Source: Escherichia phage CMSTMSU
Sequence record: MH494197.1
Reading direction: 5' to 3' (one strand)
DNA: 64,000 nt
The notes beneath the pieces were generated by a model. The model was not told the origin of the DNA. It made no database searches and saw only the letters and a program-made list of their open reading frames with translations. The translations under genes were made by a program, and so were the position numbers. Shown here piece after piece: positions 2,787 to 58,022 of the stretch (positions within the stretch are counted from its first letter, which is position 1; each line of letters begins with the position of its first letter).

Positions 2787-3411
2787 TTATTGGTAATATT
2801 TCGACAGTACTGAATAGATTTTCAAACGTAGTTCATCCCAGTTGTTAACATAGTCATACCCATAACCATTTTTATACATATGATTGTGGGACGCTCGCAT
2901 CATAACTGATGGGATACCCAATTCCATTGATGTTTCAATATTATTGATATAATCATCAATCATCAGTTTTACGTCATATCGTTCTTTTAATTCTACTAGT
3001 GCTTCATGCTTAGATTCATTCATTTCAACAATGATGATTTCATCAAAACATGTCTCACCAAATACATGCATAAGATTAGTATTGCGAAGTACCTCGCTAT
3101 AACCTTTCTTACCACACTTAGTCAGTACTATGAATTTTTCCTTGTAAAACGATCACGCAGTTCATGCATAATACTTACAGTGTTAGTTTCTACAGGTTTT
3201 AGTAATCCAAACATATACGAACGTTGATTGAATTCAGTAATGATCTCTTGAACTTTTTTCGTGAAACACCAAACCATTCGGATAAATCGTATGCGAGTGG
3301 GTATGGTGTTGTTGGGTTGATATCATATTGGAGTTTTGCGTATTCTCCTAATGAACCAATGTGATCTAGTAGTACTTCATCACAGTCGAATACAATACAA
3401 CGGTCTTTCAT
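2787..3411 (-). CDS. HAD-superfamily 5-prime-nucleotidase-like protein, frameshifted
   Basis: N-terminus MKDRCIVFDCDEVLLDH resembles the DxDxV HAD motif of deoxyribonucleotidases; fragments 3199..3411 and 2787..3071 joined via a third frame. Confidence 0.45.
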
Positions 3412-4362
3412 TACATGTTCCCCGAACAGATTAGGTCAATCTCACACAGTAATGCACTGAGATTCATTTCACGGTCAGACACAGTAGCTTGTTTAACAAC
3501 AGCGTCACGAATCTTAACCTTAATTTTCATTAGAGTAATTTCATCAGTACTGAACATTTCTGCATTACGATACAGATAAGAGAAGAATGCATCCATCTCA
3601 TCATCAGGAATGTTTTGCACGATCTGCTCACGCATTTGACGAATGTTACCAGCTTTTAGTGCATCAACAATGGCAGTACGATACCCAGCAGAGTTCTCAA
3701 TACTGTCTTCAAGTTTTACAAGTTTACCATCGACTACTGAACTTTGCAATACGTTTAGCGTTTTGCGGAAATCAGGATATGAAGCATTGATGTATTTTTG
3801 TACTTGTTCAATACTTTCATCAGTACTTAGATCTACTCCTTCTGCCAATAGTACGTTGTAGATGCGTGACATGAATTGTTCCATATCATGCTTCTCAATG
3901 GTGATGACCTGAACACGAGAGATAATAGGTTTCTGAATCTTATGTGGTTCATTACTGGTAAGAATGAAACGAGCATTTTCATGGTAATCTTCCATGACAC
4001 GTTTCAAGCTACCCTGTGCTTTGTGGTTCATTTGTTCCATTTCTTCCAGAACAAATACACGATAACGACCAAAACATGATAGTTTTGCTGCTGCGTCAAT
4101 TTTATCACGAACAGCATCGATACCTTCATCTGACATATTCAGTGTTGTTACATCACTAGGGTCAAGGTGTCCGTTAGCTTCCAGACCATTCAGTAGTACT
4201 TTGATTGCTGAAGTTTTACCTGTCCCTGCTGGTCCAAAAATCCAATATGTGGATATCACCAGTACGAATCCATTCTTCCATCTTCTGACGTAGGGCTTCG
4301 TTCTTAGATACATAATCTTCCATAGTTTGTGGGCGGTATTTTTCAGTCCATAATGTAGTCAT
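3411..4362 (-). CDS. gp44: clamp loader large subunit (T4 gp44-like AAA+ ATPase)
   Basis: Walker A GPAGTGKTSAIK, FVLEEMEQM Walker B-like, ARFILTSNEP sensor; true N-terminus MTTLWTEKYRPQTMEDYV at 4360-4362 is in another frame, shift inside a T-run near 4265. Confidence 0.8.
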
Positions 4363-4709
4363 GTTTTATTTCCTTGTATATTAGGTGTTTATGAAATCCA
4401 ATCTGCATAATCATACAACAATGCAGTGAATAAGTCTTCTGTCATTTCAAGTTGATTAAACAAAAATTAAATGAGTTTGCTTTGTTCTTCACACCCATTG
4501 CTTCGGCCGGCTGATACGATAAGTAAGTACTTAAACATATCATGAGAAACTTCATATACGTACTTCGTGTTAGTTCTATCTTCAAACATAAATCGTCCAT
4601 TTTAGAAACTAACGTAACGTCAGAAAAACTATATTTTCCATCATCAGTTATCATGTATTTTCATCCAAATAAAAGCCCAGATAATATATCCGAGCTTTAG
4701 ATTTATGTT

Positions 4710-5036
4710 TTAACGACCAAATGTTTGAGCAGAGATGCGTGGATCAGTGTCAGATACCAAACTTACTGCTGCTGGATAATCCACAAGATTCATTTTAATA
4801 CCATCAATCTCAATAGTTCTCGACCAACGACCGTGGTCAATTAGAATCCATTGTCCTTCTTTGATATCGGTAATGTCTTCACCAACAGAATATACTTTAG
4901 CCCAACGACAACGAATACCACGTATCTTACCATCATCACTTGTCAGTACAATTCCACCTGCGGTTTTACGCTCACCATGTTCTAGCTCAGTTACAATAAC
5001 TTTACCTTTACAAGCTGTCATTACTTTATTGGTCAT
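4710..5036 (-). CDS. Cpn10-like co-chaperonin (T4 gp31 / GroES-like)
   Basis: 108 aa; KGKVIVTELEHGERKTAGGIVL and KVYSVGEDI...GQWILIDHG match the GroES pattern. Confidence 0.5.
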   Translation of the reverse strand: MTNKVMTACKGKVIVTELEHGERKTAGGIVLTSDDGKIRGIRCRWAKVYSVGEDITDIKEGQWILIDHGRWSRTIEIDGIKMNLVDYPAAVSLVSDTDPRISAQTFGR

Positions 5037-5039
5037 GAA

Positions 5040-5384
5040 TTACTCCTGATCTTTAGTTTTTGCTCGGCGTGGAGCTTTCTTCTCTTCAGATACTTCAACT
5101 TCTGGTTCTTGTGGTTGAACTTCAAAGCTTTCATCATCCCATACTTCTTCAGTACTATATTCAGCACTGTGAAGTTGGTGTTCAGGAATGAAATCAGGAA
5201 TTTGCATTTCACGTTCTTTTTCTTGGATTAGTTCTTCACGGGTTTTAATGACCGTACCACCTGAACTAATCTTATCACCACGAGCATTTAGGTTTGCATT
5301 ACCTAGTGCTACTTGGTGCTGGTTTTGATACTTTAGCATATCCATATCAATGGTGGTTCCACGATAAGTTGTGTGTTTTGACAT
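5040..5384 (-). CDS. hypothetical protein (114 aa), acidic C-terminus
   Basis: intact ORF; no recognised domain. Confidence 0.4.
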   Translation of the reverse strand: MSKHTTYRGTTIDMDMLKYQNQHQVALGNANLNARGDKISSGGTVIKTREELIQEKEREMQIPDFIPEHQLHSAEYSTEEVWDDESFEVQPQEPEVEVSEEKKAPRRAKTKDQE

Positions 5385-5619
5385 ATAAAAATCCTTTTTC
5401 TATGTGAGTGATATAACGCCTCAAACAACATTATATCACATGTTTTTCTACCATTTCAAAAATTCATTTACATCTAGTTTATACTTCAAAGAATCAACCA
5501 TATGCAAATCAATCAGGAACAAACAATACGAAGCCACTGAACTACCACGCCCAAGACCCCAAAAATATTGTGCTCTTCCATATAATCAACTAACCAGATC
5601 ATACATCTTAAAAGCTTAG

Positions 5620-6232: not shown

Positions 6233-6786
6233 TCATCCTCCTAAATTGCTGTTTTGTAATGAAATCAAAAATGTATCATGAACGTAGTTTTCGAATTCAT
6301 GTGCAAAGAATCCAAACTCAACTCCTGTGATTTCAAACTCAACACCAACCATCTTACCATGTTCATTGTTCTGAAGTAAAGTGTTAAAGAATGCTTCGCC
6401 CTTTCCGTGCACAATATGCAACTGGAATGATTGGCATAAATTTCTTTTCAACTCCATTTTCTTCGTATGGGTGATTCATGAAGCGAGGAACAGTGTCAAG
6501 CATCTCATCAGAAATTCCGTATAGCATCTACATACAAACCACGGTTCTGTAAATCAGTTGGGTCTTTCACAAGGTTAGTTGTGTCTTCGCCAATTGCTGC
6601 AAAAATATTTTGACGCAAGCCAAATATTTCACCGAGTGTTCCGTTATCAATTTGCGTGTAACTTCTTGGATTCTTAGAAACTGACACCAATGAACCTGCT
6701 GGTAAAACTTCACGGTATAATATATCATACTGCAAGTTACCTTGGTTGTCAAGTGCTGACATTACTTTATAGTTTCCCATTACCAT
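6233..6786 (-). CDS. one or two hypothetical proteins
   Basis: ORF 6508..6786 followed by MLYGISDEML.. and ORF 6233..6457 in a shifted frame. Confidence 0.3.
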
Positions 6787-6879
6787 TCTAAATTTTCCAT
6801 CAGGTATAGTTGCACCAGTTTGGTTTATGATATTTTCCCTAAGTACTTTTTAATATCACTCAACGTAGTGTAAGTATAG

Positions 6880-8638
6880 TTCTGACTCAAAAGTTTTCTT
6901 TTAATAAAATACGTGGTACTTTTTGTAACCCGTATCTATCATCTGATTGACGATGGAAAGCTTGATTTGTAAATGATGGTGTACTAATACACTTAAACCA
7001 TTCACGTTCAAAATAAACAGAAGGTACAATATGTGCACTTAAGTAGTTTTGTCCAAAACCACGTACAATTTTAAGTTTAAATAACTTGGACGCAACACCA
7101 CCTTCAGTGTCATATGCTTTGATGTTGAATTCTAAATTTATATCATCATTTGCACTGAAATCTAAACTTTTGCATATGCCGTCCCGACCAAGAACCCATC
7201 TGCGGTGAGGTCCAAACCATATTTGCGAATATCATCAGGTCCACCATCTAATACATAAGATACCTGATTAGTACTGGTAGTTTGTATTTGTGGATAAGTA
7301 CTGTGACCGAAATATTCACCCACATGAATACTACCTAAATCACTATCAGTTGTGAAGTCTATTGAGTTTCCTTCTTCTGCGTTCACTAGAACACGGAACA
7401 TCTTCTCTTCACCTATAATATTCTCACCTAAGCTTGAATCATAATATCCTAAATCAATCCAATCTGAACTTTTAAACACTGGCTTTGTTTCACCTAGATC
7501 ATATTCACCAGAGATTACATATGGATATACAACGTTATCTTTCAACTGATACAAATGATTAGGTAAAGGTTTATCACCATCAGCGTATATACCATCTACA
7601 TTGTCTGGACATACCCACATTTGATATGCTTTGAAACGTTGGTTTATAGCGAAGCGGTCAGTGTCATAACTATATGTACTCAAAATATCAACAATTTCAA
7701 CTTTGAAATATGCATCACATGCATCAGAGTCATATAGGAATGTTTGCAGAAATTGTCCATTTGGGTTGAAAACCAATCCTGAATCTAGTAACTCCCCAGA
7801 GCTAGTTTGAATATTAACCTTAATTTCTTTATTAATACCAAATACAGGCCATATATTATCAATAGGACGTAGGATTGCATAATCATCAGTAATGTGGCGA
7901 GCAGGAACTTCTGCTGGGGTCATATCGAGTAGACGATACGCTGGATAAAATACTCTAGGAGATAGGTCTGTTGATGTATCAGTTCCTAAAATAAATGGAC
8001 GACGGCGACCAAATCCCTGTACAAATAAAGTACTGTTGGAACCGTATTCAATATCGCCAATACAATATAATTTGTCATCATCACCGATTTCGATTCCGGA
8101 GTAACCCACACTTCCTGACTATCATATTCAATTGTTACTTCATTTGAACCAATTTCACCACTAGGGAAATGTTACCATAGTACATAACATTTACTGCTTG
8201 AAGATAAAAGTTAATCTGTTCAGAGTTGTTAAATGTACCATCATCTTTACAATGCAATTTAATAAAATAAACATCTTCGGTATTAGTGCTTGCCGATAGA
8301 TCAAATTGAGTTTTATCAATTTTACATTTGTGCTTACCATTAATCAACTTGTTACCAGTAATACCTGATGATATAGGTGTGAGATTAGATTCATCATTTC
8401 CAACATACACTGCGTAGTGATCTTCTGGTTGAAATACTGCATCAGAACTGTCCAAACCCTGAATAGTTAGAATCATCTCTAAGTATTCGTTTTCATTAAG
8501 TATATAACTATCATCCGTTGTGGTTTCTTTGTTGATACTCAAACGCACAAGAATGTCTTGTCCTTCTTGTATATATCGAGCATCGGCTTTTATATCCCAT
8601 CTAGGGTAAAAGTTGTCATTATAATTCTCCATAGCCAA
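6880..8638 (-). CDS. large hypothetical protein (~580 aa), possibly virion-associated, frameshifted
   Basis: ORFs 8135..8638 and 7162..8109 plus an open frame continuing to ~6880; TATAAATA box just upstream at 8658-8665. Confidence 0.4.
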
Positions 8639-8649
8639 GCTACCATTAT

Positions 8650-10119
8650 CTATAGATTATTTATATAAAGGACAAGGAAGACCCACAAAGGTCTTCCCTG
8701 TTTATAATCAATCTTCAGTTTTGGCGTGAAGTCAATCTTACGTAGTTCTTTCAACTCATCTTTATAGATGTTCCAAATCAAATCATGATTCGACAGGAGA
8801 TTGTTATATTCATCCATTAAATCCAAGTTATGTTGAATATCAGCTAGTACTGATTGATAATTGTCTTGGGTCCAACGATATGATGGGAAGTTTACGATGC
8901 TTTGAATATTCTCATCGGTTGCTTCGATTTCAGTGTTTAATGATTTAACAAACTCAACCATTTCTGAACGGTTAGCAAAACCCTTAACCTTAGCAATCAT
9001 ATCATTATCAAAACATTCTTTGATTAGAATCTTATAACGTACTTCAGCAGCACAATCATCAAGTTTCTTCTCATAGCGTTTCACATAGTATTTGAAACGG
9101 AATTCAACAAAGTCCTTAATCAAATCCATTGTGTTATCATAGACTTTAACCTTACCATTCTCACCTAGAACAGTTAGGATTTGTGTCATCTTCTTATGAA
9201 TGCCAAAGTATTCAATTACATCTTTCTCCACCCATTTAGCAGATGTTCCGCGTGGTAATTTGATTGTAATATCAATAACATCAGTACTATCATTATCATA
9301 ATCACGAATATCACCATCATCGCTCATCTTAATGAGTTTCTCGATGAATTTCTCAATACTGTAGTTAGGTGGTAGACCTGTTACTTTAACAGTACTGGCA
9401 TCAATTACTTGTGCTTTACCATAGAACTCATATTTGTTTTCATCAAGCTTAGTTACGATATCACTTGCACCACATGAAACATAGTATGGAGTCATTTCTT
9501 TTAATGGTTTTTATCAATAGCACGAATACAGTTATCAATAACATCTTCAATCTTATGTGGTAGAATTGTACTCTTATAACCTACTGACATACTATCGTTA
9601 CCAAACAAAGATAGTGGGATAATAGGTAAAAAGAAACTTGGTTCCATTGTAGTACCATCATAGTTCTCTTTCATTGGAATAATGTCAGAGTCACGCAGTA
9701 CTAACATTTCAGTACTTTTATTCTTTTAACATAAGTATAACGAGCAGAAGCTGGAGTACTGTTTACTTGTGTACCAAAACCACCACGTTTACCAATGAGT
9801 GGGTAGTTGTTTACTACTGGTGATGCTAGGTTCTGGAGAGTTCCAGATGCAGATGTATCACCGTGTAGATAGATACCATCACTAATCATTTTACCAGCAC
9901 ATGATACAGTTTTGATTTCACCACTAACTTTTGAGAGGGTGAAGATTGCTTTACGTTGTGAACTCTTAAGGCCATCAATCCCGGGATTGCACGGTCTAGT
10001 GTGTACATTGAATATTCTAGTGATGTGGTATTCACATAATCAGAACTGTTATAATCTAGTAGAGTTAGTGTTTGGTTATCGATGCTTTGATTTTCGGTTT
10101 TTACTTTTAGCCATTCCAT
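8650..10119 (-). CDS. gp52: DNA topoisomerase II medium subunit (T4 gp52-like, GyrA-type)
   Basis: YSMYTLDRAIPGLMALRVHNVK at N-terminus; fragments 9886..10119, 9701..9889, 9501..9707, 8650..9495 in different frames. Confidence 0.8.
8658..8665 (-). promoter_or_regulatory. T4-type late promoter TATAAATA
   Basis: exact TATAAATA on the minus strand about 20 nt upstream of the start of gene 6880..8638, just downstream of hairpin 8676-8697. Confidence 0.4.
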
Positions 10120-10133
10120 TGTCTCTTTGTAAA

Positions 10134-10165
10134 GGGAACACCATGTTCCCCATTAATCTATATTA
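10134..10165 (-). repeat. repeated intergenic element, copy 1: TATAGATTAAT box plus GGGAACA/TGTTCCC hairpin
   Basis: minus-strand sequence AATATAGATTAATGGGGAACATGGTGTTCCC in the 44-nt gap between the two topoisomerase genes. Confidence 0.6.
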
Positions 10166-12158
10166 TTCCATCCAGTTCTTACGATCATCAGCACGTTTCT
10201 TGTTGAAAATCAAATCAAGAGTTTCACCAAGGCGACCATCATCTGTAATCGCTACTGCAACACTGTTAGTGAATGCATCACGGAAGTTTGCTTTTTCTAA
10301 CGTACCCAATCCTTTCGCACGGGTTGCTTTCCAACCTTTCCAATCATCTGGGTTGTATTCATGTACATCATGACCATAGTAGTACTTGGATTCCTTACCT
10401 TTCTCTAGAATGATGAATGGTGTTTTGAATATATACACAAATGGATTCTCTGGGTCTTGGAATAGTTCAGGCCAGAATTTGTATAGGAAGTTACATACTA
10501 AAGCACCAATGTTCTTTCCATCCTCATCTTCGTCGGCACAGATATAAAGCTTACCATAGTTAAGGTCTGCTCTTTCCGCTTTTACACGGAATCAGGTTGA
10601 TACTCGCCATTATATCATGCAATGCCATTGAATCCATTAATTCTTTGGTTTTCTCATTACCACTGACGTTCATAATTTTACCACGCAATGGTAGAATACC
10701 ATGAACTTTAGGATCACGAGCACTCGCCATGTTGGAAATAGCAGAATCACCCTCAGCAATTAGTAGGATGCATTTGGAACGATCCGTACCTGTACTGTCC
10801 AATAGTTTTGCAACTTTACCTTTCAGTAGTTTTTAGCTAGACGGCGATCTTCTTCTGCATCTTTCTTGTTGGTACGAGCAGCACAGCGTTCAAAAATTTC
10901 ATCAATCCACTCTTTGTTCTTCTTGACTAATTCATCGAACCATTCAGAATTCATCGCTTGTTGAATTGGACGAATAACGTTTTCGTTGGTTAGTTTTGAT
11001 TTAATCTGTGAGTTGAATGATGGTGCTTTCATCGTTGTTACGTTATAAATCAACAGACCTTCTTCAATATCAGAGCGGTTAGGTTTCATCTTGCGTTTCT
11101 TTGATTCTTTCTCTAGAGCAGTTCCTACTCCTAATGAGAAGAATTTCTTGAATGTATCAAGATGTGTACCACCATCAAATGCTGGGGCATTGTTAACCAA
11201 ACCATGCATATGGAAGTTATTGTTCATACCCGATACTGCATTAGGAACAATGTAGAAAGTACTGTTAAAGTTGAATGATTCATCTTTAACGTTCAATTGC
11301 ATCAGTTTAGATGCGTTGAATAGTGCTTTTTCGGTAGTTCCTTTAATTGCAATACGCTTACCGTTAAGGAAAATCTTATAGGTAGGGTTAGCAGCAGACA
11401 TTTCTTTCAAAATACTGTATAGCAATTCGGTTGGTAGTTTACGGTTCGGAAATACCTCAGAACTCAAAGTGAAGCGAATTGTTGTTCCAGTCTTATCTGC
11501 TTGAACCTTACGAATAGTTGGTTCATGTACATGAAGTTCAGGAAACATAATAGTTCCTTCTTCGAACTTCTGATTGAACTTATAAAACCGTCATAACCGT
11601 CATTGCTACTTTGTGTTTTATACGGGCGACCTTGGCGATGGATTTCAAGTTCAGCTTTAGAACTTACAATCATTGCAACTGAACCACCCAAACCATTCTG
11701 ACCGATTGTTTCATCACGCTTCGAATCATCAAAGTTACGACCAGTTTTAGTTTCAGTCATTACCATTGTACATAGGTTTTTCTGATACTCAGGAACATAG
11801 TCAATTGGAATACCACGTCCATTATCACTGATCTCAAAGGATAACTCTTCCTCATTGAAATCAACTTTGAGTACTGGCTCTTTTGTACCAGCTTTTTAAA
11901 TTCATCTAAGCTGTTATCGATAATTTCACGAGTAGCAGTTAGAATTGCAGGAACCCACTCAACGTTTTTAACTTCATATCCAGACTCACCAAAGATCAGT
12001 ACTTGACTTTCGTGAACAGAACGTGAACCCAGATACATCTCAGTACGCAAGCGAGCATGTTGATAATCGTTTAGACGTTGTACATCATGTTCCTGAAGAA
12101 CAGCACTTTCTTTCTTAGCCATTTGAATTCCTTTTAATGTCTCTTTGTCATGCAACAT
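10163..12158 (-). CDS. gp39: DNA topoisomerase II large subunit (gp39 plus gp60 equivalent in one gene, GyrB-type)
   Basis: GHKL ATPase region, Toprim ILLIAEGDSA, C-terminal RAKGLGTLE; five fragments 11760..12158, 11464..11766, 10823..11548, 10560..10802, 10163..10438 in shifted frames. Confidence 0.8.
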
Positions 12159-44841: not shown

Positions 44842-50045
<5,204 letters not shown>

Positions 50046-50076
50046 TTATAGCACATCTTTAATCACTTTCCCAGAT

Positions 50077-50152
50077 TTGATAAATAATATCATAGAGATC
50101 AGGGAATATTGCCTTAAATTTAAATGTGGTTTATATTTTTGATAAATAATAT
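50077..50152. promoter_or_regulatory. divergent promoter region with two copies of TTGATAAATAATAT
   Basis: exact 14-nt direct repeat at 50077-50090 and 50139-50152, the second 44 nt upstream of the ATG at 50196. Confidence 0.35.
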
Positions 50153-50195
50153 TAAGCAGGGTGTTCCTGCACAAAATTTGACAAGGAGATTTTTA

Positions 50196-50792
50196 TGAGT
50201 CTTAATTCTTTTAACCGTAACTATGGTATGTCTGCTACTGCTCGTGAATACTGGGTGGTAACAATGGTTTCGTAACCATCGTTGTTGATCTACCAGCAGA
50301 TGTTGAAGTTGGTACTACCGCTGTTACTTCTGACGGTTCCGAAATTCAAGATGAAGCACTACAAACTGCAATCAGCAATGCTCAATACAACCAATTCATG
50401 ATTACCCAACTACTACAACAACGTGCAGTACTAGTTACTACTTCCGTACTAGCTCTAGACACCGCTGTTGTTATCCCTGCTGACTTTAAAACCGTTGGTG
50501 GTAACGTAATCGCGTTTGGTACTAGTGGTGCTGATGTTGCAGGTGGTGCTGGTTCTGTTGCTCTAACCTTCATCTGTGAACGTCAAGACGTATTTGACAA
50601 ACAAGAAGTTCGCCCGTGCTGCTTACTCTGTTCCAGTTGATCCAACTGTTGAACTAGCTAAAGCTATTGCACAAGCTAAATTCTTCCGTACCAAATCTTA
50701 TGTTGCTCTAGGTACTGATGGTGTTGGTGATGCTGCTGCCGCTGACGCTGTTGCAATTAAAGTTCGTGCTGCTCTACCAGTACAACTATAAT
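50196..50792 (+). CDS. probable abundant late protein, paralog A (unknown function), frameshifted
   Basis: AAGGAGA RBS 7 nt upstream of ATG; gct/cgt/act/cta codon usage matches the capsid gene; LLQQRAVLVTTSVLALDT...FICERQDVFDK. Confidence 0.5.
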
Positions 50793-50805
50793 AGGGGACT
50801 ACAAT

Positions 50806-51494
50806 ATGTCTAATACTAATACTTCTTTGAACGTATCAATGGTTATTCCTTTGATAAAATTCTAGGTTACTTCTGTGGCAAAAACGCCCTAGCATCTATC
50901 GCAATTAGTAAAATTGGTAATGTTAACGTGCGTGTTACTGGTGCAGTTGGTTCTTTCGCTGGTCTACAACGTTTCCTAAACACTGACGTAGCTGATGAAA
51001 TCGTTGCATATCTAAACGAAAAAGGTATCATCCGTATCGATGGTACTCCATTTGAAGCAGCAACTCTAGAAGCTGATTATAACGCTGCTTACGCTGCACA
51101 AACTAACGTTAAACGTATCGTTGATGTTGTTCAACAACGTGCAGTTATCATCGCTACTTCCGAAATCGCTGGCAACGACGCTGAACCATTTGCAGTTACT
51201 GGTTTTACCAACGCTGCTGACGGTATCCTAAGTGTTGGTGCTGTTGATATCGCTAGTGCTTCAGTAGTTACTTTCCTCGTTGAACGTGCTAACGTATTTG
51301 ATAAAGATATTCAATCTTTCCAAGGCGTTCCAAGTACTGAAATCGAAGAAGGCCGTCTACTAATCGATGACCTAACCGCAGTTCCACTACTTGCTAATGA
51401 TGGTGTTACTGAAGTTGTTCTACGTTCCCAAGCTGCTGATGCTGCGGGTGACTTCGGTATCAAACTATTCAAATTCATCCCAGCGATGGTTTAA
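50806..51494 (+). CDS. probable abundant late protein, paralog B, frameshifted
   Basis: ORF 50928..51494 plus N-terminal MSNTNTSLNV; VVQQRAVIIATSEIAGND...FLVERANVFDK parallels paralog A. Confidence 0.5.
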
Positions 51495-51511
51495 TAAATT
51501 AAAGATAAAAG

Positions 51512-51540
51512 AAAAGGAGAGCTTTTGCTCTCCTTTTTAT
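51512..51540. terminator. strong bidirectional rho-independent terminator
   Basis: AGGAGAGC-TTTT-GCTCTCCT hairpin flanked by A-run and T-run, between convergent genes. Confidence 0.75.
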
Positions 51541-51689
51541 TTGTATGAACGAAACCCTTCAGGTAAACCGTAGATTCTCTAACCCTTCGTTCGCATTCAC
51601 TAGCTTTACGTCATAATCATCACTGAAATCATCCGTAGCTAGTTTACGCCCCATGTCTCTAACGAAGTTGTCAATAATTTCTTCTTCGT

Positions 51690-52250
51690 CATTGCGGATG
51701 ACCTTCCGCTTTTAACTTTTTCCAAAAGTATTCATTATAATCAAAACAAATTCAACTTCATTTGTTTCTGGATTAAGTACTACATCCAAATCAATCCAAG
51801 GTTCTTTACGTAAAGTAAAGATTTCCTTTGAATACTCTTGTTGTGTAATCTCTTCATAACGATATGCAAACTCGATAGCTTTAAGACGTTTGTCATCACC
51901 ATCAGGCATTAGTTCGATTACTTCCATATCATACTCTTTTGAGTAATTGCACCAGTACTTAATTTAGCATCAAGTAATTTTACATTATACTCATCACGGG
52001 TAATCTTGGAATACTTCAATTGTACATCTGCCTGTGCTATTAGATAATCAAGAGTTTCTAATACATTGTATTTCTTTTGATATCCAACTGTGCTATATCA
52101 ACTTCATATGGTGTTAGATATGTAAGTTCTGCAACTAACATATCAGCTTCATAATCATCGTTATAGTAGTATGCTTTCGCAATCTCTTTCGCTTTACCAG
52201 AAAGTCCCCAGTGAGCGGGACCATCCAGAAAGGAATAAACCTTTTTTAGC
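51690..52250 (-). CDS. hypothetical protein, frameshifted
   Basis: ORF 51712..51927 plus upstream frame MAKKVYSFLDGPAHWGLSGKAKEI. Confidence 0.25.
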
Positions 52251-52261
52251 CATTTGATTTC

Positions 52262-52547
52262 TTACCAAAATTTCTTCAATTTTCATCACATAATATGTGT
52301 CTTCACCACCACCAAGATCTTCAGTGATAGGAGTGTTTAGTGATGAACGACCAAATACAACCATATCACCAACACAAATATTATGTTCTGCAATTTGTCC
52401 ATTAGGTAGTACTTTACCTTCACCAACTGAAATCACCATACCAACACATGGTGGTTCAACGTTTCCTAGGATAATACCACCAGTACTTTTGTTCTGTGCT
52501 TCAATTTGACGAACCAGTACATAATCGTTAATCATTTTAATTTTCAT
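52262..52547 (-). CDS. groES: GroES-like co-chaperonin (Cpn10)
   Basis: MKIKMINDYVLVRQIEAQNKSTGGIILGN...VGDMVVFGRSS..YYVMKIEEIL; the listed ORF 52194..52631 has extra N- and C-terminal residues. Confidence 0.6.
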
Positions 52548-52785
52548 ATCAGTAACCTCCAGTGTTTGCAAACCATTTACCACGGAAATAAAGATTAGCA
52601 CCTTTATCACGGGTAAAACTTCCAACTTCATAGTCTTCTCACCATTACATTGTGGACAATCATGAGGTTCTTCACGATTGGCAATTTTACAATCTTTTCT
52701 AAACTGTGTTTACATTCTTCTTTTCACAACGATATGTATATAATGGCATTTTTGTCTTCCTTTACTTATTTTTAAATCAAAATTT

Positions 52786-52817
52786 GGGGAACTCCATGTT
52801 CCCCATTATTTATATTA
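52786..52817 (-). repeat. repeated intergenic element, copy 2: TATAAATA box plus GGGGAAC/GTTCCCC hairpin
   Basis: minus-strand sequence ATATAAATAATGGGGAACATGGAGTTCCCC, near-identical to 10134-10165. Confidence 0.6.
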
Positions 52818-53544
52818 GCAACCAGTTACGTAAATCTTGTATACTGCAATACCAGTGTCTAGAGTTACGTTTAGCATACCAGTTTTGGTAATACCTAGGG
52901 TAACAGATTCTGCGTTAGAAACGCGGGATAGAGCTTGTAGAACACGGTCAATGTTATAACCAAAACCAAGACCTAGTTCACCTTCAGTTTTAGAGAATGC
53001 TAGTGCACCAACGTGGTTACTTTTGTTCTTCTCACCAACGTGGAAGTAAAGAGTATCACCTTCAGTGTATGGAGTTACTAGAGAACTGAAAGATTTAAAC
53101 ACACCAGAGAAGCTTTTAGTTCCTGAACTTTAGCTGCACTAGGTGTAACCTGTACGTCATATGGTTGTTCGTGGAAACGAGGCTGGGCTGGAATTAGTTT
53201 TTCTGGTTGAACCATGAAAGTAGTGCTTGCATCTTCTGCTTTGAATGCTAGGCTCTTAACTGCACCATCTTTCAAATTAGAAGTGATAGTAGTTCCTTCA
53301 GTACTGTAAGTTTTAGAGACATTAGACCCTGTAGAAGACCTAGGTTACCAAGACCAAAACGACCTTGAACTTCTGGTACGTCTTCTTTAGTGTGAGCACG
53401 CATAACTAGGGTGCGGTCATCGGTGTATGCTTCCATGTAAACACGCTGTCCATCACCACGGTCTTCACTGCTAACTGCGATACAAGAAAAGTCGATGCCG
53501 TTGGTAGTGTTAACTAGGTCACGTAGTACGTTGCGTAGATCCAT
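52815..53544 (-). CDS. probable sliding clamp (T4 gp45-like), frameshifted
   Basis: about 240 aa in three fragments; N-terminal LRDLVNTTNGI resembles T4 gp45 LKNFATINSGI; size and location next to DNA polymerase fit. Confidence 0.4.
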
Positions 53545-53645
53545 TATATAATTCTCCGTTTTATTTGTTAATCAAAAATGTTTTGTATGCTTCAGATTAC
53601 TACAAGCACCATTATATCTCGTGAATGATGCTTGTCTCATTTTTA

Positions 53646-54089
53646 TCAGTATTTTGTGTTCCAACGTTTAAGGTACGGCTTATCAGCGTTTGCACCTGCA
53701 CCAATGTTGAATTTGTAACGTAGATGTTCTAAGTCTTTTAACGTGTTAACATCTTCAACAATGACAACTTTGCGTTTCTTTTCAATAGAATAGACGTCAA
53801 CAATCTCACCGTCGATTTCAACAGAACCAGTTCTGGTGAAACCAGCAGACATTAGAACAACTTCATCATCATTATTGTATGCAAGTACTGAATTTACGAT
53901 AGTACTATCTTCCAGTACTGCACCAACACGCTTATAGATATTTTCCATATTACTCTCCTTGGGATGCACTCCATAAAACGTACTGTTCCACGCCTCGTTA
54001 ACACTGTCCTCAGACAGTGCTAGTGATTCATCAGAGAATACGTCATTTACTTCGTCATATTTTAGTTTAGTTTCGTCTGCAATAATCAT
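53646..54089 (-). CDS. hypothetical protein (147 aa)
   Basis: intact ORF, ATGA overlap with the polymerase end. Confidence 0.4.
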   Translation of the reverse strand: MIIADETKLKYDEVNDVFSDESLALSEDSVNEAWNSTFYGVHPKESNMENIYKRVGAVLEDSTIVNSVLAYNNDDEVVLMSAGFTRTGSVEIDGEIVDVYSIEKKRKVVIVEDVNTLKDLEHLRYKFNIGAGANADKPYLKRWNTKY

Positions 54090-57000
54090 AATATTTTCCT
54101 TACGGTGAAGAATCCGTTATTAACGGCTGCTGTACTTTTCTCATGAATACCAATATCCATATCCAGAATACCAAAAATGTTTTCTAATTTTTAGTTAGAA
54201 CTATTTCTTCCATTTTCTCTGTATCAAATGGTAGTTCTAGGAACCATTCAGGTAGATATTCCACACAGTCAATTGGATAACCTACTGCTTTGATACCCAT
54301 CGGGTTATCTTTTAAGTTACATACAATTACTTTTGTACCGTCAGTTACTTCAGGTACAGTTTTGTCATCATATACTTCACGTAGACGGTTCCATTGAATA
54401 CCTGCTAATACATGACCAACTTTACATTTACCAGAAACTTCATATTCTGCTTCTAAGTTGGTATAGTTCTTAACAGTTTTCGGTGAACCTTTTTCGTGTA
54501 CTGGCATGTCTTTAAATACCTCTTTAAAGTCACGTACACGCTGTTTAAGTTGAGCTTCAGACTCACCCACCAGCAATGCAATTAGAGTCTCTTCTAGGAA
54601 GTTCTGGATGTATTTTGGCGTGTCTGAACGTTTAATTTCAAGACCCATCGCTTTAATTTCACCGGCTTACCATCAACATCTTTACGGAAACCATCTTCCC
54701 AGTACTTGAGAATTGCATAACGCTTTTCTTCAGGAATAGACCACGGAACCGACCATCTCTAAGTCTGCACCAACAATCTTACCTTTCTCAATACCAGTAT
54801 TGAACATTTCGTTCATGAATGAAGGGAATGATTCGCCAACTTCATCACCGATTTTGATATACATGTCAACGATTTCTTCTTTAGAAAGATTATATGGAAT
54901 ACCTTGTTCTTTCAGGTAATGAGTTACACTGAAGTAAACGGAGTCAGTATCACCGTAAATCACAGAGCCACCTTGATGATTATAAACACCAGTAGTGATT
55001 TCATTGATACGGCTTGCCATATGTTTAGTCATAGAACGACCAGTTAAGGTAACGGACTGACCTAAACGCTTATCAAAGAAACGTGAACCTTTGTTCAATA
55101 GTGCACCATATAGACTGTTTAGAAGAATCTTACGAATTTGCTGGTTCTGTTTCCAGAATGCACTTTGCTGTTTGAAGTAATTCTTATCTTCCGGTGCACA
55201 GAAAATACGACCATCTTTCAGTACTAAACCATTTTCCACAATGAGTTTTGCAACTTCTTCCCATTGACCTTTACCAATAGCAATACGTAATAGATAAACA
55301 GGATCATTGTCATGTAAGTTTGTACGGAACATTGTACCACTTGTGTAGTTAGATAGCAAAGGTTCAACCTTCTCAGAACCATTGAATTCCCACCCATCAC
55401 TGTACATGTGTTTGTAGTCGATTACCATTTTTGTTGTGCTTTACGCTCAGAATACCATTGAGTAAGAATATCTGGAATTACACCATACTTAGACTTATCA
55501 AAAAGTGTTCCGTTAGCACTTAGTACAATAGTACTGTCTTCAGCAAAGATAATATCATACAATTCTTTACCAGTTGCATTGAACGAACTACCATCTTCTA
55601 AATCAACAATCAAAGTTTTGTCAGATTTTTCATGAACCATTGTAAATTCTACAGCAGCAAATAAACCATGCCATGCTGCGGTCCAATCAGGTTCAAACGC
55701 TTTAGATTTGGATTTAGCTTTTTGTTCTTGTACTTTAGCAGCAAGATATGCATCAGTGTAGTCTTGACGAAGTTGTCCAAGAATACATTCAGTACTCATG
55801 CCAAGTGTACGTAGTACAGTTGGATACAATGAGTTAAAGTCTGTACATCCCAAATCGCTAACAAGGCCAAGAACTGGATCTTGAACCCATGCACCAGCAG
55901 CTTTTGCACTGATTTTCTCATCTTCTTCATCACCTTCTTCACCATAGTACTCCATCTCTGGATCTAACTCAAAATCATCCTTCGGTGCTTTGTTAAAACA
56001 ACTTCACCGCGTGAGTGAGCGAGGTTGATAATAGCAGTGTCGATTAGTGCAACAGAACCCATTGTGGTACTAATTAGTACACATTCTTTATGAGCAAGAC
56101 GGTTATGCAGGTTGATAAAGTCACATTTAGCATCAATTTTCTTTAGAAGAATACTATCCTGCTTAGAATAACGCAAGAATGTAATGTAATCTTCTCGGTA
56201 TAATTTATCCAATGAACCTTCATAGGATACTTTGTTTTCTTTAGTTACTTTTTCAGCAATATAATCTAGTTTGTACGACTGTTCAACTTGACCAGCATGT
56301 TTCTTATAAAGAGCAAGATAGTCTAAGTGTACGCGACCAATAAGATCATACGTTACTACAGTTTTACCAAAGTTATCAGCTTCACGAGCATTTGGTTTTT
56401 ATTCCACAAGCACCAACGAGCAGTAGTTGCTTCATTGAAGATTTTCTTGGTACGGTTTACCATATATGGAATATCAAAGAATTCACTGTTCCAACCTGAA
56501 ATTACATCAGAGTCATCGATTAGACTAAAGAACTCCATAAACATTTCTTTCTCATCCGTATAAAGGATGACAGTACTGTTAGGTCGTTAGTTTCTTCGTT
56601 TAACTGACGAACAATATCTTGTGCTTCGTACATTTCCATATCAGTTGGTGGTAAAGTCAGTACATAATCCTTACCAGTCCATGATTGATATAGAGAAATT
56701 GCAGTTACACGGTTGAATGGATCTGATGGTGGAGCATAACCAAACTTCTTATGGAAGTCGGTTTCGATATCGAAAAATGCTACGTTCAAATCCGGCGAAC
56801 CTTTACCCATGTATTCTCTAGCCAACGTTTTGAAGGTAATGTTGCAATCACTTTCAAAAATACGTAGACCTTCATTTTTATGTTGCTCAACGCTTTTATT
56901 CATCTGTGATTGAGTTTCAAACTCCAAATGCTTTGCGTTGGTTCCATAAATTGTTTTGTGTTCACCAGTAGGAGATTCAACATAATATTCATATACTGGG

Positions 57001-57094
57001 TCCAACTGACGTAGAATACGTTTACCGTTTTACGTTCTGCTACGTGCAAAATATCACCAGTACGTTTACGTTCCATATAAGCATCGATATACAT
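54086..57094 (-). CDS. gp43: DNA polymerase (family B, T4 gp43-like), at least five frameshifts
   Basis: exo motif FFDIETD, motif A DFNSLYPTV, motif B KILLNSLYGAL, motif C IYGDTDSVYF, KRSDTPKY, C-terminal NIFGILDMDI clamp-binding-like tail. Confidence 0.9.
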
Positions 57095-57178
57095 CGTTTG
57101 TATTCCTTTACGTTTATTAAGTTAAAAATAAAGCCCCATTCATTGGAGGCTATAAAGTTTAGTTTTAGTACTTATTAG

Positions 57179-57477
57179 TAATCGTCATCTGCTTGTGGCA
57201 AATTGTTAGTAACACTTAGGATAGTTTCGATGTTATCGAGTTTGTTTTGTTTGTCAAAGTAATCGCCTTTGTAGATACGTTGAGCGGCTTGTTTGATATC
57301 GGATGCATCAATACCTAGTTCATCAGAGATGGAACTAATGAAATCTGCATAGGATGCTTTGGTGTCGTCAATAAAAGTAAGTTGTACTACTGCGTTGTTT
57401 AGTGCATCACCTAGACGTTTACGTTGTTCATCATTTAGGTCACGAATTTCAACTTTAACTTCTTTTTAGCTTTTGCC
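57179..57477 (-). CDS. hypothetical small protein, frameshift near start
   Basis: MAKAKKEVKVEIRDLNDEQRKRLGD.. recovered by a 1-nt shift in an A-run. Confidence 0.35.
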
Positions 57478-57659
57478 ATTTGTTTGCTTCTCCATGTGTT
57501 TTGAAAAAATGTCATCTCACAACCGCTGTAAGATGACTACATTGTATCACTACTTACGATTTTGTTCCAAAAACTTTTAAACAGGTTTAACAGGGAACGA
57601 AAACTTCTTCTTACTAAATTCAGATGTTGTTAGAGATGATAGCTCAAGAACATATGCTT

Positions 57660-58022
57660 TCAACTTAGAAACAGTTCTATTTCATAATCAGTTGCTACCT
57701 CAAGATCTATCGCCATCTTAATGTTATTCAACTCATTAATTGCTACGGTTCTTAATTCTTGGTGCTCAGATGATAGACGTTTGATCTTTTCATCAGTAGA
57801 TTCAACATAATCAGAAATTTTACTTCCATCATAGATTTTACCAACTACTTCATCTTCATCTCCATCATGCTCCAACTCAGAAACACTGTATCCATACGGT
57901 ACTAACAATGTTACATCATATGATGCTTGTGCAATATATCCATCGTCAGAGTACTGAACTTTTAAAGTATCTTGTCTGAATTCGCTTTGACAATCATACC
58001 AGTCAATACCCTCATCTGACAA
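57660..58022 (-). CDS. hypothetical acidic protein (120 aa)
   Basis: intact ORF immediately downstream of the fibre gene. Confidence 0.4.
   Translation of the reverse strand: MSDEGIDWYDCQSEFRQDTLKVQYSDDGYIAQASYDVTLLVPYGYSVSELEHDGDEDEVVGKIYDGSKISDYVESTDEKIKRLSSEHQELRTVAINELNNIKMAIDLEVATDYEIELFLS

Follow-up and report, generated by a model that had tools for sequence, protein, structure and literature searches.

The textbook example of viral re-tooling of the host's GroEL cage is bacteriophage T4 gp31. The bacterial co-chaperonin with which it is compared, E. coli GroES (Cpn10; PF00166; PDB 1AON), is a barrel of ~100 amino acids with a roof beta-hairpin and a mobile loop that carries a Gly-Gly-Ile-hydrophobic-Leu motif, while gp31 (PDB 1G31 and 2CGT; phrog_931) is roofless and has a longer loop. 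Passages of a published account describe the RB49 protein CocO as a phage-encoded roofless co-chaperonin that also uses the host GroEL (PMC5649160, citing Ang 2001), and state that the lack of the roof hairpin in gp31 and CocO probably makes the folding chamber larger (PMC5649160, citing Ang 2001 and Bakkes 2005). A further passage reports that in E. coli both proteins can stand in for GroES (Keppel 2002, cited in PMC5259590). Finally, in regards to systems with more than one such protein, the chloroplast Cpn20/Cpn10 system (PDB 7EKQ) has several Cpn10 paralogues, including tandem-domain proteins.

The DNA analysed here, called the window throughout, is a stretch of 64,000 nucleotides from Escherichia phage CMSTMSU (sequence record MH494197.1). 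It encodes two Cpn10-family genes, both on the minus strand, which we designate P1 and P2:

52246..52547, minus strand: P1, GroES-type co-chaperonin gene, recognised by Pfam Cpn10, phrog_3188, AlphaFold2 and Foldseek
52194..52631, minus strand: the mechanical P1 ORF of the window, its stop lost through a 1-nt deletion
4710..5036, minus strand: P2, gp31-type (roofless, long-loop) co-chaperonin gene, 108 aa, intact

A preliminary description of this DNA had reported two Cpn10/GroES-like genes without naming a strand, and both ORFs are real and have Pfam and PHROG matches. The coordinates that it gave for P2 are exact. For P1, placed there at 52262-52547, the start and the quoted strings are correct (YVLVRQIEAQNKSTGGIIL and VGDMVVFG are both contained in the translation), but 52262 is not a gene end and the implied 286 nt are not a multiple of three.

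Both ends of the window match Rak2/121Q-type jumbo E. coli myoviruses over their full length, with ~98.5-98.9% identity between the window and phages WPEC3, BF17, EC.P1, fEgEco12, Ecwhy_1 and TH47, the genomes of which are 350-384 kb. Read through the annotated fEgEco12 genome, the gene content identifies the window as a module for replication and nucleotide metabolism from a Rak2-like jumbo E. coli myovirus, with genes for DNA polymerase, sliding clamp, clamp loader, gp32 and RecA/UvsX as well as helicases, primase, RNR, topoisomerase II, IF3 and terminase. Nearly every gene of the fEgEco12 counterpart module lies on one strand. The window is shorter than every relative, and the region 48000-58000 contains 48 indels that are present in the window only (a gap against both WPEC3 and fEgEco12). 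Single bases account for 38 of these 48, and 28 of those 38 fall in homopolymer runs of 5-6 bases. Because these 48 indels are confined to the window and lie mostly in such runs, we attribute them to a sequencing or assembly artefact. Homopolymer under-calls are systematic in 48000-58000, and apparently throughout the window, and many ORFs of the window are therefore broken. Two replication genes are examples:

52815-53544: sliding clamp gene, broken into three ORFs by indels
3411-4362: clamp loader gene, broken into two pieces by indels

P1 is affected in the same manner. Its start at 52547 has a GGAGG Shine-Dalgarno sequence 7 nt upstream, but one T is absent from a T5 run (52270-52267), so that the frame in the window continues to 52194. 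The WPEC3 gene is 303 nt long and codes for 100 aa with the C-terminus EEIFGKKSNG, the (I/V)FGKK motif recurs at the C-terminus of nearly all 24 members of the P1 family, and the true P1 stop maps to window positions 52248-52246. A real extension, as the 145-aa ORF with its odd C-terminal tail might suggest, is ruled out by WPEC3, the family alignment and the indel pattern, which identify it as a frameshift artefact. P1 is 99-100% identical to its orthologues in fEgEco12, BF17, EC.P1 and TH47.

P1 matches Pfam Cpn10 (PF00166) with an E-value of 4e-16 and 59.3 bits, where the cut-off is 21.1, and its PHROG match is phrog_3188, 'co-chaperonin GroES' (E 1.2e-25), as compared to E 0.037 for phrog_931. 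Its PDB sequence matches are co-chaperonins throughout, Chlamydomonas Cpn20 being the best, with Hydrogenophilus and Thermus GroES and also E. coli GroES (E 2e-9) among them. The AlphaFold2 model has a mean pLDDT of 77.2, with low values in the mobile-loop region and the tails only, and in a Foldseek search against the PDB its top 33-36 matches are all of GroES/Cpn10 types (GroES, Cpn10, Hsp10, Cpn20 and gp31). Specifically, P1 matches E. coli GroES over its whole length, with the same barrel and about the same size, and shares its loop motif in the form GGIIL, in which G24 and I25 are invariant in the family. The roof hairpin is also kept (GEGKVLPNGQIAEHNI) and occupies residues 45-53 of the predicted model, with strands at 45-46 and 52-53 and pLDDT >90. 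However, there are several differences. Identity to E. coli GroES is 29%, the mobile loop of P1 is two residues shorter and has a conserved EPPC motif, the C-terminus has a conserved FGKK tail, the coliphage lineage carries a 4-residue GGGE insert, and P1 is encoded by a phage. Thus, the earlier wording 'near-canonical GroES' suits the architecture of P1 but not its degree of identity, its loop length or its EPPC motif. A recent capture from the host was also considered for P1 and is ruled out by the 29% identity to E. coli GroES and by the best PDB matches (Cpn20, Hydrogenophilus and Thermus), which are no closer.

The P2 protein is 100% identical to its counterparts in fEgEco12, BF17, EC.P1 and TH47. 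Its score against PF00166 is marginal, with 22.6 bits just over the cut-off of 21.1, and its residues 1-78 match phrog_931, 'head morphogenesis', with an E-value of 3.7e-20. The same PHROG family is matched by T4 gp31 with an E-value of 3.7e-50, the gp31 query being 99% identical to a protein that a database lists under the name head assembly chaperone. When family profiles are compared with each other, the P2 family aligns with the T4 gp31 family with 94.4% probability (E 8.7e-8), an alignment that covers P2 residues 1-69 only, and with the P1 family with 88.6% probability (E 2.7e-6), and the P1 and gp31 families align with 68.5% probability. By this measure the gp31 family appears to be the nearer relative of the P2 family, and the P1 family the more distant one, though the profile differences are modest. 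Note that an hhalign comparison of the P2 family profile with the single gp31 sequence is weak (15% probability), and only the family-versus-family comparison is informative. A sequence search of the PDB with P2 returned only a weak match to Cpn11 (E 0.14) and no gp31. In contrast, the AlphaFold2 model of P2 (mean pLDDT 82.4, with low values limited to the mobile-loop region and the tails) has exclusively GroES, Cpn10, Hsp10, Cpn20 and gp31 as its top 23 Foldseek matches in the PDB.

P2 and gp31 belong to the same PHROG family, are both roofless with a loop longer than that of GroES, and both have a hydrophobic tripeptide after a Gly. In P2 this GroEL-docking motif reads GGIVL, with G28 invariant and I29 present in at least 90% of the family. 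The likeness to CocO is by description only. Several features set P2 apart from gp31: the two proteins are 19-23% identical, the extra loop length of P2 lies after the tripeptide and not before it, P2 has family-specific motifs (the invariant RW pairs R44-W45 and R70-W71, and HGRWSR), and its presumed client, the capsid protein, is smaller. Homology in the C-terminal third (gp31 residues ~75-111) was not found in the PHROG and hhalign alignments, which end at P2 residues 69-78, and the last 40 residues of P2 form a C-terminal extension that is unalignable with gp31. The earlier assignment of P2 as gp31-like thus stands for the missing roof hairpin, the longer loop, the phrog_931 membership and the better match to the gp31 profile, but does not extend to these last 40 residues.

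The roof and the loop are where P1 and P2 part most clearly. Aligned with either GroES or P1, P2 lacks nine residues at precisely the position of the roof hairpin, a gap that is absent when P2 is aligned with gp31. The spacing between the VG and (V/E)G(D/Q) landmarks is 16 residues in both GroES and P1, 9 in gp31 and 7 in P2, which places the roof hairpin in P1 and leaves P2 without it, as is the case for gp31. After the hydrophobic tripeptide, there are 10 residues in P1, 12 in GroES, 13 in gp31 and 16 in P2, and the loop between strands 1 and 2 (DSSP, on the predicted models) has 16 residues in P1 and 27 in P2. The comparison of mobile-loop lengths that the preliminary description had called for therefore yields a loop that is longer than that of GroES in P2 and shorter in P1. 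The same text had held that its view of two Cpn10 proteins would fail if one of them did not fold as Cpn10; both predicted models have a single-domain beta-barrel Cpn10 fold and match Cpn10-type PDB structures, with low pLDDT in both mobile loops. Taken together, the sequence matches and predicted models identify P1 and P2 as genuine Cpn10-family co-chaperonin homologues with different lid geometries.

Both genes are already labelled as co-chaperonins in GenBank relatives and the pair is not peculiar to the window. The same two genes are gp58 and gp615 in 121Q, where they are labelled '58: chaperonin' and '615: GroES-like protein', and g361 and g423 in fEgEco12, both of which are labelled 'co-chaperone GroES'. 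PBECO4, RaK2 and K64-1 use the labels 'head morphogenesis' and 'co-chaperonin GroES', and Erwinia phage pEa_SNUABM_12 has three genes called 'putative co-chaperonin GroES'. In phage CBB the gp31-type gene is recorded as a 'hypothetical protein', while CBB_131 and CBB_268 likewise carry Rak2-like GroES-type annotations and are the two genes counted in the CBB paper (PMC5259590), in one sentence that is the only published remark we found. CBB_131 is a third, GroES-like copy beside TyrRS, and CBB_268, at ~193 kb, is by its position most likely the P1 orthologue; the published remark therefore excludes the gp31-type gene. A literature search found no experimental work on any of these proteins. With the genes already public, what they offer is a question of function rather than a discovery. 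Some labels in this group need care. In WPEC3 (PV611058.1, locus L001) the GenBank product names at 6320-9325 and in the neighbouring genes look shifted, in that a 3006-nt DNA polymerase CDS is named 'co-chaperone GroES' and the true GroES gene is a 'hypothetical protein' with a 'GroES superfamily' note, and in CRJP21 the GroES position carries the label 'terminase large subunit'.

We also surveyed how the two genes are distributed among phages. In tblastn searches, P1 and P2 orthologues co-occur in Rak2-like phages, in the same 33 Escherichia, 8 Erwinia and 4 Yersinia records, and the pair is also present in Rak2-like phages of Klebsiella, Salmonella, Serratia, Cronobacter, Pectobacterium and Xanthomonas. 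Since the pair is kept in all Rak2-like groups, we argue that there is selection for keeping both genes. Outside these groups, P2-type genes without P1 were found by tblastn in PA5oct-like Pseudomonas phages, Agrobacterium phage Atu_ph07, Sinorhizobium phage Phosso and a Vibrio jumbo phage. When 1.84 billion representatives were searched with a profile, 603 P2-family clusters fell within E <=1e-3 and 279 within E <=1e-10. There is a third Cpn10 gene in CBB, GAP32, BF and the Erwinia and Yersinia relatives; it shares 46-47% identity with E. coli GroES and lies directly upstream of a phage tyrosyl-tRNA synthetase gene (3001-3279 of locus L011 in pEa_SNUABM_12; 1501-1782 of locus L012, which is CBB_131). 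A search with E. coli GroES did not find this third gene in E. coli-infecting Rak2-like relatives. Overall, there are 1 to 3 Cpn10 copies per genome across the wider jumbo-phage clade.

E. coli GroES as query matched 33 Escherichia records, the same number as the Rak2-like records that have P1 and P2, and those listed are these phages. It matched no GroES-type gene in T4-type coliphages, which agrees with the earlier claim that T4 carries only gp31. A tblastn search with E. coli GroEL returned no Escherichia phage among its counts by genus, which went down to 7 where 33 such records exist. Since no GroEL homologue was found in the E. coli-infecting relatives, the partner chaperonin of both proteins is likely the host GroEL.

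The reading that we prefer, with a probability of roughly 0.55, is that P1 and P2 are two Cpn10 lids of different geometry that work on host GroEL and serve different sets of phage proteins. Each of the two proteins would assemble into a heptameric lid on host GroEL, docking through the Gly and hydrophobic tripeptide (GGIIL in P1 and GGIVL in P2) as is the case for GroES and gp31. The two lids would then produce folding chambers that differ in size and openness, and different phage proteins would be processed in them. P2 probably does a gp31-like job, and P1 may supply or replace GroES-type capacity during infection. The preliminary description had suggested that P1 and P2 divide their labour between the capsid protein and other clients, which is plausible as a hypothesis. 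Counting against this reading are the marginal Pfam score of P2 and the lack of an alignment between its last 40 residues and gp31.

The size of the capsid protein also has a bearing on what the P2 chamber would be for. T4 gp23 has a mass of 56 kDa. In phAPEC6 and 121Q the major capsid protein has only 42 kDa (PMC7247149), and an enlarged cage is therefore not obviously needed for it, so that the bigger-cage rationale of T4 is not automatically transferable. A clade that stably keeps GroES-type and gp31-type lids side by side, with a third or fused copy in some of its members, offers a natural experiment in how the geometry of a lid governs which clients a chaperonin takes.

The two proteins could instead be ordinary GroEL lids with overlapping clients, the extra copies raising the supply of co-chaperonin or capturing GroEL after host shut-off. 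The number of copies in the wider clade, 1 to 3, is consistent with this, in that P2-type genes occur alone in PA5oct-, Atu_ph07- and Vibrio-type phages and CBB-type phages have three copies, which indicates that copy number is flexible and that an effect of dosage or redundancy is possible. The ability of gp31 and CocO to replace GroES in E. coli, given in the cited passage (Keppel 2002, cited in PMC5259590), points in the same direction. However, the differences in roof and loop are kept across all Rak2-like genera at 50-90% identity, and because two architectures are preserved over such distances, pure redundancy is disfavoured and we regard this explanation as unlikely.

A different arrangement is suggested by fusion proteins among the metagenomic relatives of P2. 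P2 itself lies among early replication genes, as the second gene of a compact pair that is flanked by a gene with a DNA_pol3_alpha domain and by the clamp loader gene:

5040..5384, minus strand: partner gene, phrog_14844, 114 aa, directly upstream of P2, with its stop 3 nt before the P2 start
5430..5459, minus strand: sigma-70-type promoter-like site (TTGAAA, 18-nt spacer, TG-n-TATAAT; 11/12), a consensus match only
4667..4698, minus strand: terminator-like hairpin and U-tract (-14.6 kcal/mol, z -4.26, then UUUUAUUU), just past the P2 stop

The promoter-like site has an extended -10 element and stands upstream of the pair. Distant metagenomic contigs keep the same order of genes, a DNA_pol3_alpha fragment followed by the partner gene, the P2-type gene and an AAA+ clamp loader gene, and the phrog_14844 protein may be a functional partner or a client of P2. 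Homologues of the partner protein are 114-137 aa long and are encoded directly upstream of the P2-type gene (563-925 in locus L006, 5047-5400 in L008 and 7598-8011 in L009); their first 50 residues are conserved (…DMD…A.GN..NARGD…) and their tail is charged and of low complexity. In L009 the clamp-loader gene beside the Cpn10 gene appears to be split (8697-10943), the flanking pieces having faint matches to intein-splicing domains and the middle piece having a weak match to a TnsA-like endonuclease.

A scan of 149 listed representatives from the P2-family profile search showed two or three Cpn10 domains in six:

Loci L006-L010: P0140, P0141, P0142, P0150, P0186 and P0225, metagenomic tandem Cpn10 proteins at the same locus

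Half of these six join a GroES-type domain to a P2-type domain, with the GroES-type domain first in P0150 and P0225 and the P2-type domain first in P0186. The P0150 gene belongs to an orthologous locus (DNA_pol3_alpha fragment, partner gene, Cpn10) and has a further, stand-alone Cpn10 gene immediately before it. One of the six, a protein of 362 aa, has three P2-type domains. By the usual logic of gene fusions, a protein that contains both domain types implies that the separate subunits may share one oligomer, as in chloroplast Cpn10/Cpn20. By this analogy, P1-type and P2-type subunits would co-assemble into one hetero-oligomeric, heptameric ring on GroEL and so tune the size of the cage and the opening of its roof. 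The occurrence of GroES-type/P2-type fusions in both orders and the position of P0150 are consistent with such a mixed ring, as are a 200-position 'GroES' family in PHROGs, which suggests that tandem forms exist in isolated phages, and the 1-3 Cpn10 paralogues per genome in the jumbo-phage clade. If true, this would give these phages an adjustable folding chamber, a viral counterpart of chloroplast Cpn10/Cpn20. However, tandem and triple fusions are a feature of P2 relatives, whereas P1 and P2 are separate single-domain genes. A distance of ~47.5 kb separates these two genes, which belong to different transcription units, the fused GroES-type domains are nearer to bacterial GroES than to P1, and every GroES-type/P2-type fusion is known from a single short metagenomic contig. 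A mixed ring is, in our estimate, unlikely.

At the P1 locus, the sliding clamp gene comes first, then a terminator-like hairpin and then a Zn_ribbon_8 gene that ends 1 nt before the P1 start, and a virion structural protein gene follows P1:

52549..52749, minus strand: Zn_ribbon_8 (FmdB-like) small gene, PF09723 E 6.4e-11, g360 in fEgEco12, frameshifted in the window
51530..52253, minus strand: virion structural protein gene, phrog_13349, 241 aa in relatives, fragmented in the window, 3' end approximate
52785-52814, minus strand, in the gap that separates the Zn-ribbon gene from the end of the sliding clamp gene: TATAAATA motif, and immediately after it a GC-rich hairpin (GGGGAAC…GTTCCCC) with a T-rich tract

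The P1 stop overlaps the start of the virion structural protein gene (ATGGCTAA in relatives; window 52246-52253, minus strand), an arrangement that suggests translational coupling of the co-chaperonin with the structural protein. It is very improbable that one of the two proteins, in which case most likely P1, is no chaperonin lid but a GroES-like barrel reused for example as an assembly factor for the overlapping virion protein. This overlap, the shorter loop and the family-specific EPPC motif could be read in that manner, but the roof hairpin, the GGI(I/V)L motif and the match to GroES along the entire protein are conserved, and the low pLDDT of the loop would fit a flexible GroEL-binding loop.

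The TATAAATA motif upstream of the Zn-ribbon/P1 unit was considered as a T4-type late promoter and is given no weight, since this motif is not enriched in the window, where it occurs 5 times versus 7.5 expected. The element at 52785-52814 may serve as a terminator or may regulate the unit formed by the Zn-ribbon, P1 and virion-protein genes.
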